Shown one piece after another: positions 7,980 through 15,773 of a stretch of DNA of 36,601 nt (the first letter of the stretch is position 1; each line of letters opens with the position of its first letter). The stretch covers positions 1 to 36,601 of the forward strand of contig JBBIPP010000012.1 of the NCBI GenBank assembly GCA_037442745.1, given 5' to 3'. A model generated the notes under the pieces. That model had not been told where the DNA came from, did no database searches, and saw only the letters and a list, made by a program, of their open reading frames with translations. The stretch comes from an archaeon. GTDB taxonomy: Archaea; SpSt-1190; DYHY01. The translations under genes were made by a program, and so were the position numbers.

Positions 7980-8074
7980 CTGCCTTCAGAACCACTCGAA
8001 AATAGTTTAAAATCTCTTGAAAATAGTGAATATTATAAACAGGTCTGTCCTGTTTTGTTCTTGGAAGGGGAAAA

Positions 8075-8977
8075 ATGCAACGAAATGCAGTTCTTTTTGC
8101 CGGACAGACTGGCGGGCCTTCCGTTCCTGCGGGACTGGAAAGCTATGCGAACCTTATTGGCTCTTTTAAGGGAGCTCAGAGGGGATATCCCGGGGCTGTC
8201 GAAGGGTTTGAGCGGGAAATTGCGTCAAGCCAGAACCCAGGAGTCCGCCCGGGAAGTTTCATTTACAGAATAAAGGACGGGAAAGCGATACACAGCGGAA
8301 CAGTAATTGGTGCAATAACATATGGCAAAGGCTCCGAACGGCAAGGTGTCATAATCGGGGGCGACCGCCAGACAAGCTTGGGAGAACAGTGGGCATATGT
8401 GAACAACACGAAAAAAGTCCATCCCTATGGAAAATTCGCAGTTGCTTCGACAGGCCTAGTTTCCGCAATTGACGTAGCCCATTTCATAATAGCTGATGCC
8501 GCAAGAAGATATGCGGACGAATTCAACAGCGAATCCAAGGGCAATAATGACCGGGTTTTGATGGATGTCACACGGGCGGCAGGGCTTCTCTATTGCCTAG
8601 GGAACACGGAAATCGGGGAGGACGCCGGGCATCTTGTCGCAGGAGTGAGTAACGAGGGAGTCCCTCTTGTGTATGACATTGACGGCCCCTACATGGAGGC
8701 GCACACAAGCCACTTTATGAAGGGCTCCGGTTCGGTTTTCGCAACAGCAGTCCTTGACAATTTCGCGGCAAAGAACAAAAAAAGGACTGAGGAAGACGCA
8801 ATAAGGGGCCTTGTGGAAGCGCTCTTCGCCGGAACGAACAGGGACAATTTCTGCTCGGCCAAAAATGACGATTTCCAGCTTCTGGCTCTTACTGCCGACG
8901 GCATAACCGAGGTTCCTGAAGACACTGTTGTTGCAATAGCTTCTGAGATTAGAAAGGCGCACAAGGAGGAAAACTAA
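8075..8977 (+). CDS. divergent proteasome beta-subunit-like Ntn hydrolase with ~75-aa propeptide
   Basis: HSG|TVIGA (Thr1 codon at 8300), GVIIGGDRQTS, KKV, GSGSVFA, VEALF...RD, C-terminal TADGITEVPEDTV. Confidence 0.85.
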   Translation: MQRNAVLFAGQTGGPSVPAGLESYANLIGSFKGAQRGYPGAVEGFEREIASSQNPGVRPGSFIYRIKDGKAIHSGTVIGAITYGKGSERQGVIIGGDRQTSLGEQWAYVNNTKKVHPYGKFAVASTGLVSAIDVAHFIIADAARRYADEFNSESKGNNDRVLMDVTRAAGLLYCLGNTEIGEDAGHLVAGVSNEGVPLVYDIDGPYMEAHTSHFMKGSGSVFATAVLDNFAAKNKKRTEEDAIRGLVEALFAGTNRDNFCSAKNDDFQLLALTADGITEVPEDTVVAIASEIRKAHKEEN

Positions 8978-8978
8978 G

Positions 8979-9941
8979 ATGGATGCAGGAAAAGGGGGTC
9001 TGATAACCAAGGAAGATTTGGGAATAGACGAGATTAGAGACTCGAGCTTCTGGGTCTTGGGAGGGGCTCTGAGAACCTCGGGAAGAGGGGTTCTCGTATT
9101 TTCATATACCCACGACAACCACAACCCGGACCTTGAGAAGGTAAGAGGGGAGTTCATTAACAAAAGAGCTAGGACGAACAGCCAGATAGGGGAAGACGTG
9201 GAAGGAACGCCTTCCTGATATCTCCCCGCCGAAATAGACAAGATAAAAACCGCTCTTAACCGGGAGGAGGGAAGACTAGACAGCCTTGACCTGCCCGCGC
9301 AGTTTCCCGGAAGGCCTCCTTCCTACATAAATGTGAACACAGTTTATGACAGGTATTATCCTGGTCTGGGAAGAGTTGTGCTGAATCTTGCAACAGTTTT
9401 CGTTCCGAAAACGTACATTGACGAGAAAAGAGCGGTTGAAGCCCTTTTTGAAACAATAACTGCCCTCTCGTGGAAAAATCAGGACGCAATTCCCCTAACA
9501 AGGGAGCTCGCCCAAGCATACGAGGCAATGACAAACGATGTAGACCCTTATGAAAGGGGCTTAGGCTACGCCCTGGAGAAGGTGACTCCTTCAGCGGACG
9601 CCCTTTTCGTCGGGCAAGACGGGGAAATCTGCACAGTAAAGCACAACCAACCTTTCCATCAACATACTGCTCCGGTTGTATTGGTTGGCAGGAAGTTCGA
9701 GGTGAAAAAGCTCGCACCTAAACTGAAAGCCCGATATTGCAAGGGGTCAGTAAACGAGCTCTCCGAGAAGGACGCAGCATATGCGACAATAGACGCCCTG
9801 AAGGAGCTTTTCAGGAAGGATTTCAACTACACGGCGCTCAGAATGGCCTTTGTCCGGCCGGATGGAATTGAACGGGTGGAGCGCGTCCAGAAATACGCTT
9901 CCGCTCCAAAGGCAGGAGCAATCCTCGACGCACCTCAGTAA
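8979..9941 (+). pseudogene. divergent proteasome alpha-subunit-like gene interrupted by one in-frame TGA (9216-9218); pseudogene, split gene or readthrough
   Basis: ORFs 8979-9218 and 9333-9941 share a frame with no other stop; alpha-like segments PYE, QDGEI, VVLVG, LKARY, SEKDAAYATIDALKE, LRMAFV; starts 1 nt after the beta-like gene. Confidence 0.6.
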
Positions 9942-10919
9942 TTTCCGAGGAAAAATGAGGAGATATAACCTCTCCTCGAGTAAGACTCTTCCGAAATGCC
10001 CTTAATAGTCACTTCCAACATCTCCCCAGATATTGACCGGACAGCCTGCATTTTCACATATTCCGAATTCCCCTCGAAGAAAGTGGTTGAAAATAGGATT
10101 CGTTTTTCAGAGCCAAGATGCCCTTTCCAATTTTTCCCTCTCTTTCCTGGGTTTGCGTTCCAAGAGCTCCCGGATTTCTCCAAAATACTCAATTGCCATT
10201 GTTGACGCAAGCCAGAGGGAGGCCTCCAAAACAAGTCCTGCCAGAAAGGGCGTCCGAGATAATTGACCACAGGCTTTCAAATGACCTTGCCAATTTTCCC
10301 AAAGACAAAATCCGGACCGAACTTGTGGGATCGGCGGCAACCCCCATTGCAGAGAAATTCTTCCGGAAAAAATTCCAGTCTCAAGGGAATCCGCGGCGCT
10401 TATGTACTCTGCATTTGTCGCAAACACAGTCAATTTCATGGCGAAAGCGACAACTGCGCGCGACAGGCTGGCTTCAATGCGTCTTCTGAAAATCGTCCGC
10501 CCCACGGAAAATTACTTGAAACGTCTTTTCAGGGCTCCGAGAAGTTTCCTATTTCCATGAAAAAGACAATTGAAGAAGAGCTCACCTGCCCGGACTTTTC
10601 TGGAGGAAAACTCGGAACAGTTACTCTTGAGACTGCTGATTGAGAAGAATTTATACGGAAAAACCTTCTTTTGCTTTCAAAAGAGCTTCCGAAACTTTTC
10701 AAGAAAGAGGTATCAATAGGCTTTCTTTCCTGCCTCGACCTTGAAAAATGGAGGAATGTCTTTTTCGCCCAATCCGAAACAGCCAGAAAATTCATTTCAG
10801 AGAAAATTGGAAAACCCGTTTTCCCGGAAAATCGGGACAATGCGCCATCAAATAATGCGAAAGGAAATTTGGCACCTTCTCCCAAATTCCCCCCTCTCCC
10901 CACGTCTGCCAAAAGTTAA
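9935..10919. pseudogene. ~1 kb of fragmented reading frames, probably a decayed gene (strand uncertain)
   Basis: no full-length ORF; protein-like patches in several frames; minus frame ends at 9935 abutting the convergent gene; plus frame 10263-10919 is broken by a single TGA at 10641. Confidence 0.3.
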
Positions 10920-10946
10920 AAGCCGGGTTCGCATTCCTCTTTCCCA

Positions 10947-12156: not shown

Positions 12157-14745
12157 TTATTGGACTTTGGAGGAAAGGAACACCCAGAAAGGCCTCTCTT
12201 CATTGTAGAAAGTACCGTTCTCGGCATTCATTCTCTGGACAACCTCGGACGTCACCGGGATTATGAAGAAGAGCCTCCTTTTCTCAGTAGCCTTTGCGAC
12301 ATATTGGGGCTCTCCGTTTTCCCCCTCGCCCAATTCAACCTTTTCCGGAGCGAACCTCAAGGCTGCCGAGAACTCTCCCGGGCTTGCCGACACGTTCCTG
12401 CCATTTATTTTCAGCCTTCCGTTCTCAACAGTCACCGGAGAATTTGCAGTTGTCTCAAAGTCCGACCCGTCGTCAATTGAGACTGTCCCGTTCGCCGAAA
12501 CTATCGAAGCCTCCGAAATTCCGATAGTGGCAATTACCTCGCCTCCTTCAGTTGAATCCGAGACATTCTCCCCATTGACAGACACTCCCGAATCCGAGAC
12601 TTCAATTTTTGCAACTCCTGAAAGCTCCCTTGCATCAATTGCAGTCCTTTTCTCGACAAGCGCCCTTATTCTCCTGCTTATCTCTTCTCGGAGAGCAGTC
12701 ATCCGGGCAATTTCATCGGCAAGCCCGTCTCCAGTTTCTTTTCCCGGGAATTTTACGAGCTGGGCCAGATAGTAGTCCGAAATGCTTCTCGCAGCAGACG
12801 AATGGGTTTCCGAAGCCAATTCCCGGCCTGCCACGCAATTGTTGTAGGAAGAAATTTCTTTCTTGAGATCAACCAAAGATTTCTCAAGCTCCTTGAAAAG
12901 AGACTCTTCTCCAGACTTACGCGCATCGTTCATTTTCTGGACGCTTATAGAGTATTTCTCAAGAAGTTCTGCCGGGGACTTTCCGCACGGGTTGTTTGCG
13001 ATTTTCTCTCCTTGCGCTTCTCTGCATTTTGAGACAAGCTCAGAGTATTTTCCAGACAGGCCGGAGAGCTCGCCATCAAAGGAAGTTCTGTTCTTCCCCG
13101 CGAATTTTTCGGAAAACTCGCTTTCCGTAAGACCTAGAATTTTTTTAATATAGAGTATTCTCTGCTCGAGTTCCTTTGCCTCCCAGCAAGGACCATTCAC
13201 AGAAACAGGCGACAATGTGGTGTTCCTTTTCTCAACGCAATTATACATTGCCTTGTTATATGCCTTGTCCGCATCCTCGAACTTTTCCCTGACATCTTCC
13301 CTTGCCAGTCCTTTTTGGGAGAGCTCGTCGTCAGAGAGGAGGAGAAGCCCTTTCAGGTAGATCACTCTCTCGCCAAGACCTTTAGCCTCACCGCAGGGTG
13401 CTTCTGTCGCCGTAGCTATCTTCGTTACGTTCCCTCTCATAATCATAGGAATAGGCTTGTTCGGAACCCCTTTTGGATCTTCCGTCAGGGAACAGTATCT
13501 CTTTGCGACCTTCAGCTTGTATTCAACCGACTCGAATCTTTTCACTGCCTCGTTTCTGTCAAGACCGAGCGCTTTCAAATCCTCGTCCTTTGAGGAGAGC
13601 AGGCTTCTTGCCTTTGAATACTCCTCGTTTATTCTTGAAAGTTCTTCGCATGAAGTTTCGCGCTTTTCAGAAAGCCCGCCAAGTTTTTCCTTGACGCACG
13701 ATAGGTAGCTTTCAACCCCCTCAGAAATCCGGTCAGCGATAGCGCCAGCCCTTTCTGTATCGTTCGCCTTGAAAGCTTCCAAATAATCCTTTTTCAGCAC
13801 CGCGTTTGTCTTCAAGAAATCCCTGCACTGGAAAACCTTGCCTGCAATTGTCTCCTCATATAGATAAATTCCCATGCAGGCCAAGAAATAGTTCTTCTCC
13901 TCTGAAAGAAGGGATGAATTCATCCGATCCGCCATTGAGAAATTCCCCTCAAGTACGTATTTCCAGTATTGGCTGTGCGTCTCTGTTAGTGCGCTTTTCA
14001 GGTCGTTGCACACGCCCGCGCTCTCTATTGGCTTCACCTGCGCCGGAGCAGTCCGGCTTGGAGACGGTCGTGTCTCTCCCCCAAGGCACGCTTCAAGGCT
14101 CTGCTCAAGTTTGGCAATCGCCCCCTTGATGCTTGCCATTTTTTCGGTGTTTTTCAGGCGATATGCGTTCTGGTAGTCGCCGTATGCGGAAGTAATTTCT
14201 CTCATTATTGTTTCGCAGTTGTTTATGAGTTGGGGCTGTTTGCTCGTTGTAGTGCCCTCTGTTGGACATTGCGCGAACTCGCAATTGGGGCCGACCCTTC
14301 CAACAGCTGAGCCGTCCGGGCAAATCTTGACATCCATTGTGCATGCCACCTGTCTTACTGCTGTTTCCGAGAAATCCGCGTTAGCGACAGGCTCAATTGG
14401 TACCGGAAACCCAATGCATCTGTTGTATTTCCACAAGTTGTCTGAGAGATATTTCTTGATGCTCTTTACTGCTTGGAGGTTGTTTTCGATCTGCGCCAGG
14501 GAAAATCTGGACTTTGCCGAATTGTAATAGGAGATTATTGTCGTGCAGTTGACGCCGTCGATCTGGATTGGCCGGTTAGTAGAAGGATGGATTGTCGTAA
14601 CTCCCCCAGATCTTGAATTTACAGACACCGAAGTCGTTCCCGAGGAACCGTCGTCCGCAATTGGCGAAAATGCTGGCATGAGAAAAATTACCGAAACAAT
14701 AACCAACAGAGTTGCTAGGTAAAACCCCCCCTTTTTGCACTTCAT
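12157..14745 (-). CDS. large secreted/surface protein with Cys-bounded helical repeats (862 aa)
   Basis: N-terminal signal peptide, CTMDVKICPDGSAVGRVGPNCEFAQCP module, seven C...C helical units, C-terminal RLFFIIPV...AENG...RPFW domain. Confidence 0.85.
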   Translation of the reverse strand: MKCKKGGFYLATLLVIVSVIFLMPAFSPIADDGSSGTTSVSVNSRSGGVTTIHPSTNRPIQIDGVNCTTIISYYNSAKSRFSLAQIENNLQAVKSIKKYLSDNLWKYNRCIGFPVPIEPVANADFSETAVRQVACTMDVKICPDGSAVGRVGPNCEFAQCPTEGTTTSKQPQLINNCETIMREITSAYGDYQNAYRLKNTEKMASIKGAIAKLEQSLEACLGGETRPSPSRTAPAQVKPIESAGVCNDLKSALTETHSQYWKYVLEGNFSMADRMNSSLLSEEKNYFLACMGIYLYEETIAGKVFQCRDFLKTNAVLKKDYLEAFKANDTERAGAIADRISEGVESYLSCVKEKLGGLSEKRETSCEELSRINEEYSKARSLLSSKDEDLKALGLDRNEAVKRFESVEYKLKVAKRYCSLTEDPKGVPNKPIPMIMRGNVTKIATATEAPCGEAKGLGERVIYLKGLLLLSDDELSQKGLAREDVREKFEDADKAYNKAMYNCVEKRNTTLSPVSVNGPCWEAKELEQRILYIKKILGLTESEFSEKFAGKNRTSFDGELSGLSGKYSELVSKCREAQGEKIANNPCGKSPAELLEKYSISVQKMNDARKSGEESLFKELEKSLVDLKKEISSYNNCVAGRELASETHSSAARSISDYYLAQLVKFPGKETGDGLADEIARMTALREEISRRIRALVEKRTAIDARELSGVAKIEVSDSGVSVNGENVSDSTEGGEVIATIGISEASIVSANGTVSIDDGSDFETTANSPVTVENGRLKINGRNVSASPGEFSAALRFAPEKVELGEGENGEPQYVAKATEKRRLFFIIPVTSEVVQRMNAENGTFYNEERPFWVFLSSKVQ

Positions 14746-15084: not shown

Positions 15085-15171
15085 GCCGAGATAGCGAAAT
15101 CCGGTCAACGCGCCAGCCTTGAGAGCTGGTTTCCCTCCGGGGATGTATGGGTTCAAATCCCATTCTCGGCG
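15085..15171 (+). tRNA. tRNA-Ser(TGA)
   Basis: acceptor GCCGAGA/TCTCGGC, anticodon arm CCAGC-CTTGAGA-GCTGG, long variable arm, T arm ATGGG-TTCAAAT-CCCAT, discriminator G; no encoded CCA. Confidence 0.95.
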
Positions 15172-15305
15172 CTCCCAAACCAATTTTCTTTCGCTAAAGA
15201 AAAAACCCTTGAGGGGAAAGGAAAGAAGACGCAAAAAGAAAAGGTTCCGGAGCCGAAGGCGACGCCCCGAGGTAGGAGGGGAAATCCCATTCTCGGCGCT
15301 CCCAA
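15155..15305 (+). repeat. 24-bp direct repeat of the tRNA-Ser 3' end (attL/attR-like)
   Basis: AAATCCCATTCTCGGCGCTCCCAA at 15155-15178 and 15282-15305. Confidence 0.9.
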
Positions 15306-15403: not shown

Positions 15404-15475
15404 GGGCTGGTAGTTCAGTGGTAGAATGCGGCGTTCGCAACGCTGAGGTCACGGGTTCGACTCCCGTCCAGTCCA
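15404..15475 (+). tRNA. tRNA-Ala(CGC)
   Basis: GGGCTGG/CCAGTCC acceptor with G3:U70, anticodon loop TTCGCAA, T loop TTCGACT, discriminator A. Confidence 0.95.
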
Positions 15476-15773
15476 CAACAACCCCCGTTTCTTTTGAGAA
15501 AACCAAGGCTTTGTCCGATGCTCCGCGGAGCAAAAATCCGTTGATTGGCGTAAGAAAATCTGCGCGTCCTTTTCGGACGCACGAATAGTCACTTGTTACG
15601 AGAATCAGAGGAATGTTGAGCGAGCTAAAGCGAACGAAATCTGTGCCGGAGAACATGGACTCTTGTTAGGTCATTTGCAAGCCGTCAGCAAAATAAGTTG
15701 TTTTTCCCGGGACAAAATTCGCCATTATCCACCGAACCCTTAAAAACCTCTTTTCAGGGAGTTCTCCAATCGC

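Follow-up and report, generated by a model that had tools for sequence, protein, structure and literature searches.

Does an archaeal genome that has a housekeeping 20S proteasome also encode a second, strongly diverged pair of proteasome core subunits? This question was raised by two adjacent genes on contig JBBIPP010000012.1 of the archaeal assembly GCA_037442745.1. The window, meaning the whole stretch of 36,601 bp that was analysed, carries gene 1 at 8075–8977 and gene 2 at 8979–9941, both on the + strand. The window genome (G000) consisted of 1.14 Mb in 20 contigs and was 94.5% complete. A first-pass annotation, made from the letters of the DNA, had described the two genes as a beta-plus-alpha proteasome-like pair in the order of actinobacterial prcB-prcA, separate from the housekeeping proteasome and with a closer resemblance to PrcB/PrcA than to the subunits of archaea. 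The present analysis pointed to a lineage-restricted, highly diverged two-gene beta/alpha-like proteasome core pair that is additional to the housekeeping 20S and whose products may co-assemble; the probability of this reading was put at about 0.5.

Gene 1 runs from an ATG at 8075 to a TAA at 8975–8977. Pfam analysis showed that residues 90–259 of its product matched PF00227 (E 4.6e-8, 33.4 bits), above the curated gathering score of 22.4. Profile comparison by hhalign used reference alignments of canonical subunits taken from related genomes: gene 1 matched the 27 archaeal beta subunits with 97.5% probability (E 7.8e-12, residues 70–291) and the 25 canonical alpha subunits with a probability of only 22%. 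In the ESM Atlas, all 30 of 30 matches were PF00227 clusters, with a best score of 0.95. Gene 1 is a real, very diverged proteasome beta-type protein. Its likeness to proteasome subunits exceeds chance, as the Pfam and hhalign values and the same junction and flanking genes in a second genome show.

The leader of about 75 residues, the Gly/Thr junction at 8300 and the GDR, KKV, GSG and RD motifs were all found where the first-pass annotation had placed them. Thr76 is encoded by ACA (8300–8302) and is directly preceded by Gly75, and the two aligned on the G/TTT junction of canonical beta subunits. When gene 1 was aligned by MAFFT with 22 such subunits, Asp97 of the GDR motif (8363–8365, Asp17-like) sat in the Asp/Glu17 column. 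Lys113/Lys114 of the KKV motif (8411–8416) were Lys33-like, Gly127 (8453–8455) was the equivalent of Gly47, Ser218 of the GSG motif (8726–8728) was Ser129-like, and Asp257 of the RD motif (8843–8845) was Asp166-like; the equivalent of Ser169 fell in an ambiguous column and was either Cys260 or Ser261. Residues G75, T76, K113, G127, G217-S218-G219, R256 and D257 were invariant among gene 1 and the 22 canonical beta subunits, and the whole catalytic set, Asp97 included, was identical in the gene 1 orthologue of a second genome (G003). The N-terminal nucleophile (Ntn) catalytic set of gene 1 therefore appears intact as judged by alignment, and the protein is predicted to be a protease that would release its own propeptide at Gly75/Thr76.

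Four features set gene 1 apart from canonical beta subunits: its leader is 75 residues long, its first hairpin carries 5 inserted residues, the loop joining H1 and H2 is longer, and TVI stands in place of TTT. The alignment showed that the beta-subunit leaders of relatives were far shorter. The leader of gene 1 was partly kept in the orthologue, where P18, A19, Y24, F31, E46, I49, R58, P59, Y64 and others were invariant.

The AlphaFold2 (AF2) model of gene 1 had a predicted local distance difference test score (pLDDT) of 75.9 and a predicted TM-score (pTM) of 0.75, and contained the full strand set and helices H1–H5. The model leans to archaeal beta because its input alignment contained archaeal beta subunits. 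Foldseek analysis of the model revealed at least 500 matches at E ≤ 0.001; the matches listed were 20S proteasome entries, and among them the 20S chains of bacteria, archaea and eukaryotes all had E-values of 4e-12 to 3e-11. TM-scores normalised to the target reached 0.86 for archaeal beta chains. The top rows were Mycobacterium tuberculosis pro-beta chains (3mka, E 3.9e-12). Against the NCBIfam equivalogs, gene 1 scored 35.7 bits with archaeal beta TIGR03634 (cut-off 224) and 35.5 bits with bacterial TIGR03690 (cut-off 191.9). Its PDB sequence matches were likewise tied, with E 0.0014 for Sulfolobus beta and E 0.0017 for Rhodococcus beta; in the PDB sequence search the Rhodococcus pro-beta chain 1q5r_H (294 aa) aligned over gene 1 residues 67–290. 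Because the two bit scores were near-equal and both far under the equivalog cut-offs, gene 1 is neither the housekeeping PsmB nor PrcB and, on these tied results, is no nearer to one than to the other.

Gene 2 begins with an ATG at 8979, and a single base (8978) separates it from the stop codon of gene 1. Its frame was open apart from one TGA (9216–9218) and had no frameshifts. It holds, in order, PYE, QDGEI, VVLVG, LKARY, DAAYATIDALKE and LRMAFV, and the YDR...FSPDG gate/H0 motif was found neither in gene 2 nor in its orthologue; the one-base spacing, the order of these alpha-like segments and the missing motif all agreed with the first-pass annotation. The canonical alpha of the same genome (contig C13) has YDRVATVFSPDG near its start, unlike gene 2. 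The sole gene 2 orthologue found was P0002, an intact single open gene of 316 aa in G003, a metagenome-assembled genome named 'Candidatus Micrarchaeum sp.', with 51% identity. The orthologue carries Gly at the TGA column, shares the invariant VLVFSYTH, and is conserved with gene 2 on either side of the TGA, which lies in a weakly conserved stretch, in a loop between predicted helices. Comparison of the window with the orthologue showed no conserved Gly-Thr ahead of the first strand of gene 2. HMMER analysis over 1.84 billion representatives returned only three proteins, the orthologue plus the two pieces of gene 2 from the window itself, and no sequence match to PrcA was obtained in the HMMER and PDB profile searches.

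In G003, an extra open reading frame (ORF) lies between the MBL-fold gene and gene 1 (L005, 578–1261) and is homologous to gene 2 residues 106–297 (hhalign 91.9%, E 7e-7). It has no counterpart in G000. Since the first hairpin is absent and a TAG interrupts the frame, this ORF is likely to be a shortened duplicate of gene 2.

Evidence for the fold of gene 2 came from its AF2 model, built from a two-row alignment. The order of elements in the model was that of the proteasome fold: a beta-hairpin, extra helices at 50–71 and 83–104, H1-H2, strands, H3-H4 and a final hairpin. VIA-align, which is independent of Foldseek, was used to compare the model with 48,161 chains. Rows 1–17 were all proteasome-family chains (Z 11.1–7.2) and spanned model residues 24–310; by the yardstick of this method, models without a clear match typically peak at a best Z of 7–8. 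Rows 1–8 were eight 20S chains including Thermoplasma acidophilum 2ku1_A (Z 11.1–10.1), followed by Rhodococcus 20S chain A in row 9 (Z 9.4), PrcB in row 10 (Z 8.9), an Anbu design in row 12 (Z 8.3), Sulfolobus beta in row 15 (Z 7.6) and connectase in row 16 (Z 7.6; another connectase chain had Z 6.4). From row 18 onward the matches were unrelated helical hairpins, aligned to residues ~48–110 only (Z ≤ 6.6). Foldseek returned 20S entries in 46 of the 46 rows listed, with a best E of 7.3e-4. The top chains were presumably of alpha type, an assignment that leans partly on chain-letter conventions. The title of 2ku1 (an archaeal gate-opening study) and chain A of 1q5q point to alpha, and chain H of 1q5q is named beta among the PDB matches.

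PF00227 clusters headed the ESM Atlas matches for gene 2 (score 0.86); this is no more than a lead. A three-row profile that included the extra G003 ORF aligned gene 2 residues 203–300 onto alpha columns 133–227 with 90 columns in register (E 7.4e-4); against beta the values were E 5.7e-3 and 6.4%, and reversed controls gave E 0.3–0.5. The separate-pair proposal had depended on an Ntn/alpha fold for gene 2, and the low-confidence model matched 20S subunits first. The model thus supports a proteasome fold with low confidence, and gene 2 probably encodes an alpha-like protein of that fold which is non-catalytic and carries a two-helix insertion.

The two genes are coupled. At the orthologous G003 locus (L005) gene 1 ends at 2361 and gene 2 starts with an ATG at 2363, again with a single base between them. 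In both G000 and G003, which belong to different genera of the same family, the pair lies between the MBL-fold gene and AlaX. The genes are adjacent in beta-then-alpha order, as in actinobacterial prcB-prcA. Between the G000 and G003 proteins, identity was 61.5% for gene 1 and 51.3% for gene 2, 45.7% for the flanking MBL-fold gene and 48.1% for the flanking AlaX, and 80.9% and 81.7% for canonical alpha and beta. The GC content of the pair, overall and at third codon positions (GC3), resembled that of neighbouring genes. When gene 1 (8425–8977) was compared with a relative about 93% identical, 24 of the 32 substitutions among those listed fell at the third codon position; the same listed substitutions comprised 19 synonymous and 10 non-synonymous codons, and the catalytic residues were untouched.

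The canonical proteasome genes of the genome were found elsewhere. Searches with PF00227 located the canonical alpha gene psmA on contig C13 (197.9 bits) and the canonical beta gene psmB on contig C2 (166.2 bits), against 34 bits for gene 1. Because psmA and psmB sit on these other contigs, the gene pair is an extra copy, and the case that it represented the only proteasome genes of the genome, which the first-pass annotation had considered, does not apply. Canonical proteasome genes were present in 31 of 31 relatives searched, and a third, low-scoring PF00227 match occurred in two of the 31 (G000 and G003). Of the idea of a second, strongly diverged pair, the separation from the housekeeping proteasome thus stood, and the closer affinity to PrcB/PrcA was not supported.

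The pair is rare. A search of 41 genomes with gene 1 gave matches in four at E ≤ 0.001, with an orthologue in G000 and G003 only; the other matches, found also in G022 and G037, were canonical beta genes (E 2.6e-6 to 4e-4). Gene 2 matched in 2 of the 41 genomes, and gene 1 in 2 of 17 genomes of the phylum. Two hot-spring runs contained contig pieces with about 93% identity to the window. Metagenome contigs scanned with gene 1 and with the alignment of gene 2 gave no match, and the scan of genome contigs returned the G003 record only. Word-index protein searches with gene 1 returned only gene 1 itself; this blank is weak evidence because the 61%-identical G003 orthologue was missed by the same search. 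The G003 gene 2 protein, which comes from the same contig as the missed gene 1 orthologue, is present in the word-index collection.

These results can be joined in the following model. Gene 1 would cleave off its own 75-residue propeptide at the Gly75/Thr76 bond and so free Thr76 to act as nucleophile, with Asp97, Lys113/114, Gly127, Ser218 and Asp257 in support. Gene 2 would be translated from its start one base downstream of gene 1, giving a non-catalytic protein of the same fold that lacks both a Gly-Thr junction and the YDR gate motif. The two products would most likely co-assemble into a second, specialised proteasome-like particle, in which the two-helix hairpins of gene 2 may either decorate the non-catalytic layer or act as its gate. 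In G000, the premature TGA in the hairpin loop would leave the alpha-like gene inactivated, split, or made by rare read-through only. A wider version is tentative: a DPANN-type lineage might keep a self-contained second 20S-style particle, built from an ancient beta/alpha pair whose coiled-coil hairpins replace the gate. Such a particle would be a specialised compartmental protease with its own substrate admission, possibly independent of an AAA unfoldase, and the stop in the hairpin loop would mark either a very recent loss or a two-piece alpha-like subunit.

Several findings weigh against the co-assembling pair. In the window itself, gene 2 is broken by a real stop. TGA was the commonest stop in G000, ending 250 of 614 long open frames, and ARAGORN found no tRNA-Sec and no tca-anticodon tRNA among the 41 tRNAs found in the genome. 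Because of these two results the TGA of gene 2 was taken as an ordinary stop, and the alpha-like gene is therefore interrupted in G000. TGA recoding, with a tRNA-Sec or a suppressor tRNA, was rejected on the same grounds; the first-pass annotation had not addressed this point. Logan contigs of two subsurface runs carried the TGA region with 0 differences; they are not independent support because this DNA possibly comes from those runs. Downstream of the TGA, an ATG, GTG or TTG in frame first occurred at 9333, and a tidy two-piece gene 2 was not evident because this start has no obvious ribosome-binding site.

Other points on the same side concern the fold and the distribution. The gene 2 model was poor (pLDDT 46.5), its Foldseek TM-scores were only 0.25–0.33, and one match reached E ≤ 0.001. 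The two-row hhalign profile gave 5% against alpha and 0.7% against beta, too weak alone, and the three-row profile had a probability of only 25.6% against alpha. Gene 2 matched no Pfam family at E up to 10 and no NCBIfam family at E up to 1; against the PDB, the profile search found no proteasome chain and gave one weak match to an unrelated 63-aa chain (E 0.71). The substitutions relative to the ~93% relative came from a partial listing, and the synonymous/non-synonymous count may be incomplete. The extra gene 2-like ORF of G003 also carries a stop. No pair was found in G001 (~90% complete), of the same genus, nor in G002 (~84% complete), which fits a dispensable or decaying system. Finally, the binding of the two proteins, the processing of gene 1, its activity and the role of the hairpins are all predictions.

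Known systems offer several points of comparison. Archaeal PsmB/PsmA (T1, PF00227) resemble the pair in the fold of gene 1, the Gly/Thr junction and the equivalents of Asp17, Lys33, Gly47, Ser129 and Asp166. The gene 2 model scored best on 20S chains, and the pair likewise comprises one catalytic and one predicted non-catalytic protein. Gene 1 differs from archaeal PsmB in its 35.7 bits against an equivalog cut-off of 224 and in its leader, hairpin insertion and longer H1-H2 loop. Gene 2 differs from archaeal PsmA in that it is unmatched by proteasome sequence models, is without YDR...FSPDG and has a two-helix insertion of ~60 residues. The two genes of the pair adjoin each other, whereas psmA and psmB are on separate contigs, and identity between G000 and G003 is 51–61% for the pair but 81–82% for the canonical subunits.

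Fuchs, Alva and Lupas (2021; PMC8665760) described 22 new proteasome-homologue families, including WPH, PHI, ACC and the PMI group. As stated in the sections of that paper drawn on here, many proteasome homologues are single-subunit, propeptides among proteasome-like homologues are confined to proteasome beta subunits and HslV, helical insertions occur in connectase, PHI and the PMI group, and coiled coils occur in WPH, ACC and Anbu. Several of these families thus resemble gene 2 in having helical or coiled-coil insertions. Judged by their descriptions in those sections, they are single proteins, whereas the pair encodes an adjacent, probably non-catalytic fold partner. By the same sections, Anbu, BPH, connectase and the 22 families are without a propeptide, unlike gene 1, whose 75-residue leader is kept in the orthologue. 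The words 'operon', 'DPANN' and 'Micrarchaeota' each had 0 occurrences in the main text of that paper. A search of the literature on Micrarchaeota and the proteasome, judged by title and abstract, found no published account of the pair among the papers listed.

Among the other explanations, gene 1 might work alone as a homo-oligomeric proteasome-like protease, as HslV, BPH and Anbu do, with the gene 2 product in an accessory or regulatory role, dispensable to the enzyme and for that reason open to loss. Such an arrangement would suit the intact gene 1 with all its catalytic residues, the stop in gene 2 of G000, the TAG in the extra alpha-like copy of G003, and the many single-subunit homologues described in the sections of PMC8665760 drawn on here. 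It is rather unlikely, however, given that the one-base junction and gene order are kept across two genera, that gene 2 is conserved at least as well as its housekeeping neighbours, and that the gene 2 model shares the fold of the natural partner of beta subunits. Decay offers another account, in which the pair is functionless in G000 and gene 2 is a pseudogene. The ordinary TGA stop, found in identical sequence in contigs of two runs, would fit this, as would the TAG of the G003 paralogue, the failure to find the pair in G001, where another gene lies upstream of AlaX, and the tiny size of the family (3 matches in 1.84 billion representatives, two of them the window's own pieces). But gene 1 is open with its catalytic residues intact, its differences from the ~93% relative are mostly synonymous among those listed, and gene 2 has a single stop, no frameshifts, and flanks conserved with the orthologue on both sides of the stop; a functionless relic was accordingly judged unlikely.

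Two further explanations borrow from known enzymes. According to the sections of PMC8665760 used here, connectase (the MJ0548 family) is a monomeric proteasome homologue without the first helix pair and without a propeptide, with a mobile two-helix insertion over its active site. The locus could by analogy encode a connectase-like, sequence-specific ligase or transpeptidase instead of a compartmental protease, with the two-helix insertion covering the substrate site. The proteasome fold combined with a two-helix insertion, and the connectase chains among the gene 2 fold matches (Z 7.6 and 6.4), speak for such an enzyme. However, the insertion sits here in gene 2, which lacks a nucleophile, and not in the catalytic protein; gene 1, for its part, carries a long propeptide and retains H1 and H2 (H129–151/H165–176), the first helix pair, so a ligase is very improbable.

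Horizontal transfer of an actinobacterial-type operon was considered as well. In Actinobacteria, prcB and prcA are adjacent, beta then alpha. The pair shares this order and a long beta propeptide with PrcB-PrcA, and M. tuberculosis pro-beta chains headed the Foldseek rows of gene 1. However, gene 1 was no closer to bacterial than to archaeal subunits by sequence or fold: the first-pass claim of a closer affinity to PrcB/PrcA found no support in the tied equivalog scores (35.5 and 35.7 bits, both far under their cut-offs), the tied PDB matches (E 0.0014 and 0.0017), and Foldseek E-values of archaeal, bacterial and eukaryotic beta subunits that lay within one order of magnitude (4e-12 to 3e-11). 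No pup, AAA ATPase or Pup-related gene adjoined the pair in the window, in agreement with the first-pass annotation, which had also proposed a genome-wide check for Pup machinery. That check found 0 matches to PF03136 (Pup ligase, PafA/Dop) in the 94.5%-complete genome, with a positive control in Corynebacterium glutamicum. With GC and GC3 like those of neighbouring genes and no PrcA sequence match for gene 2, such a transfer is hardly credible.

Proteasome-like proteins include barrel proteases at one extreme and a monomeric ligase at the other, and the divergent homologues known so far have been described as consisting of one subunit each. If the co-assembling beta/alpha-like pair is correct, a long-propeptide catalytic subunit with a dedicated non-catalytic partner would represent a second, independent division of labour between alpha and beta, and would bear on the origin of the two-ring-type architecture. 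The intact G003 pair is small and directly testable by co-expression. The importance of the pair is limited by the extreme rarity of the family (two genomes and one near relative), by the broken partner gene in the window, and by binding and activity being predictions.

The features of the locus are listed in Table 1. The promoter and ribosome-binding region was read from an A/T-rich box, ATATTATAAA, at 8030–8039 and from GGAAGGGG at 8063–8070, both located 5' of the gene 1 ATG at 8075; their function is putative.

Table 1. Features of the gene pair and of its predicted products in the window.
Feature	Position	Strand	Basis
Putative promoter and ribosome-binding region of the pair	8030..8070	+	Sequence reading
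Gene 1, diverged proteasome beta-type Ntn threonine-protease precursor (predicted), 300 aa	8075..8977	+	PF00227, hhalign, AF2 model, Foldseek, ESM Atlas
Gene 1 leader (predicted propeptide), 75 residues, last residue Gly75	8075..8299	+	Gly75/Thr76 aligned on canonical G/TTT junction
Gene 1 predicted mature beta-type domain	8300..8974	+	Residues conserved in canonical beta subunits and orthologue
AAGGAGG Shine-Dalgarno-like site for gene 2, within the 3' end of gene 1	8963..8969	+	Sequence reading
Gene 2, orphan, probably non-catalytic proteasome-fold (alpha-like) partner, 320 codons, one in-frame TGA	8979..9941	+	Orthologue, AF2 model, VIA-align, Foldseek
Gene 2 predicted first beta-hairpin, residues 24–46	9048..9116	+	AF2 strands E24–33 and E38–46; 20S alignments begin at model residues 24–26
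Gene 2 predicted two-helix hairpin insertion, ~residues 48–110	9120..9308	+	AF2 helices H50–71 and H83–104; canonical subunits without counterpart
Gene 2 in-frame TGA, codon 80, loop between the two predicted inserted helices	9216..9218	+	Frame reading
Gene 2 predicted C-terminal core: H1-H2, strands, H3-H4, final hairpin	9309..9938	+	Secondary-structure order as in proteasome fold

The neighbours of the pair are, in order, FEN1, an MBL-fold protein, the pair itself, about 1 kb without recognised content, AlaX, a coiled-coil protein, two tRNAs and the leucyl-tRNA synthetase LeuRS. The ~1 kb segment (9942–10946) gave no Pfam match on five ORFs and no Rfam match. By blastn it is not repeated anywhere else in the genome, and a tblastn comparison with genes 0, 1 and 2 revealed no similarity to the pair. 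The orthologous locus of G003 has only ~70 bases where the window has this segment. In G001, the place of the pair upstream of AlaX is taken by a divergently transcribed gene of at least 499 aa (L062, 2690–4186) that matches Lon_C weakly (21.6 bits against a cut-off of 21.1).

The PAN model (TIGR01242) found nothing over its cut-off in G000 and gave two sub-threshold matches only. Both were located at C14 5908–7569 in one 854-aa frame, as expected of a double-AAA Cdc48-type ATPase. Short hot-spring contigs of higher depth (33–57) covered window 8079–8208 only, some 130 bases at the start of gene 1, beyond which they continued into unlike sequence, which hints at a different upstream junction in the ~93% relative.

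The coiled-coil protein next to AlaX (12157–14745, − strand) has 862 aa and a weak match, below the cut-off, to the coiled-coil model APG6_N; a similar coiled-coil ORF adjoins AlaX in G001. The two tRNAs were tRNA-Ser(tga) at 15085–15172 and tRNA-Ala(cgc) at 15404–15476, which lie upstream of the leucyl-tRNA synthetase gene in the window.

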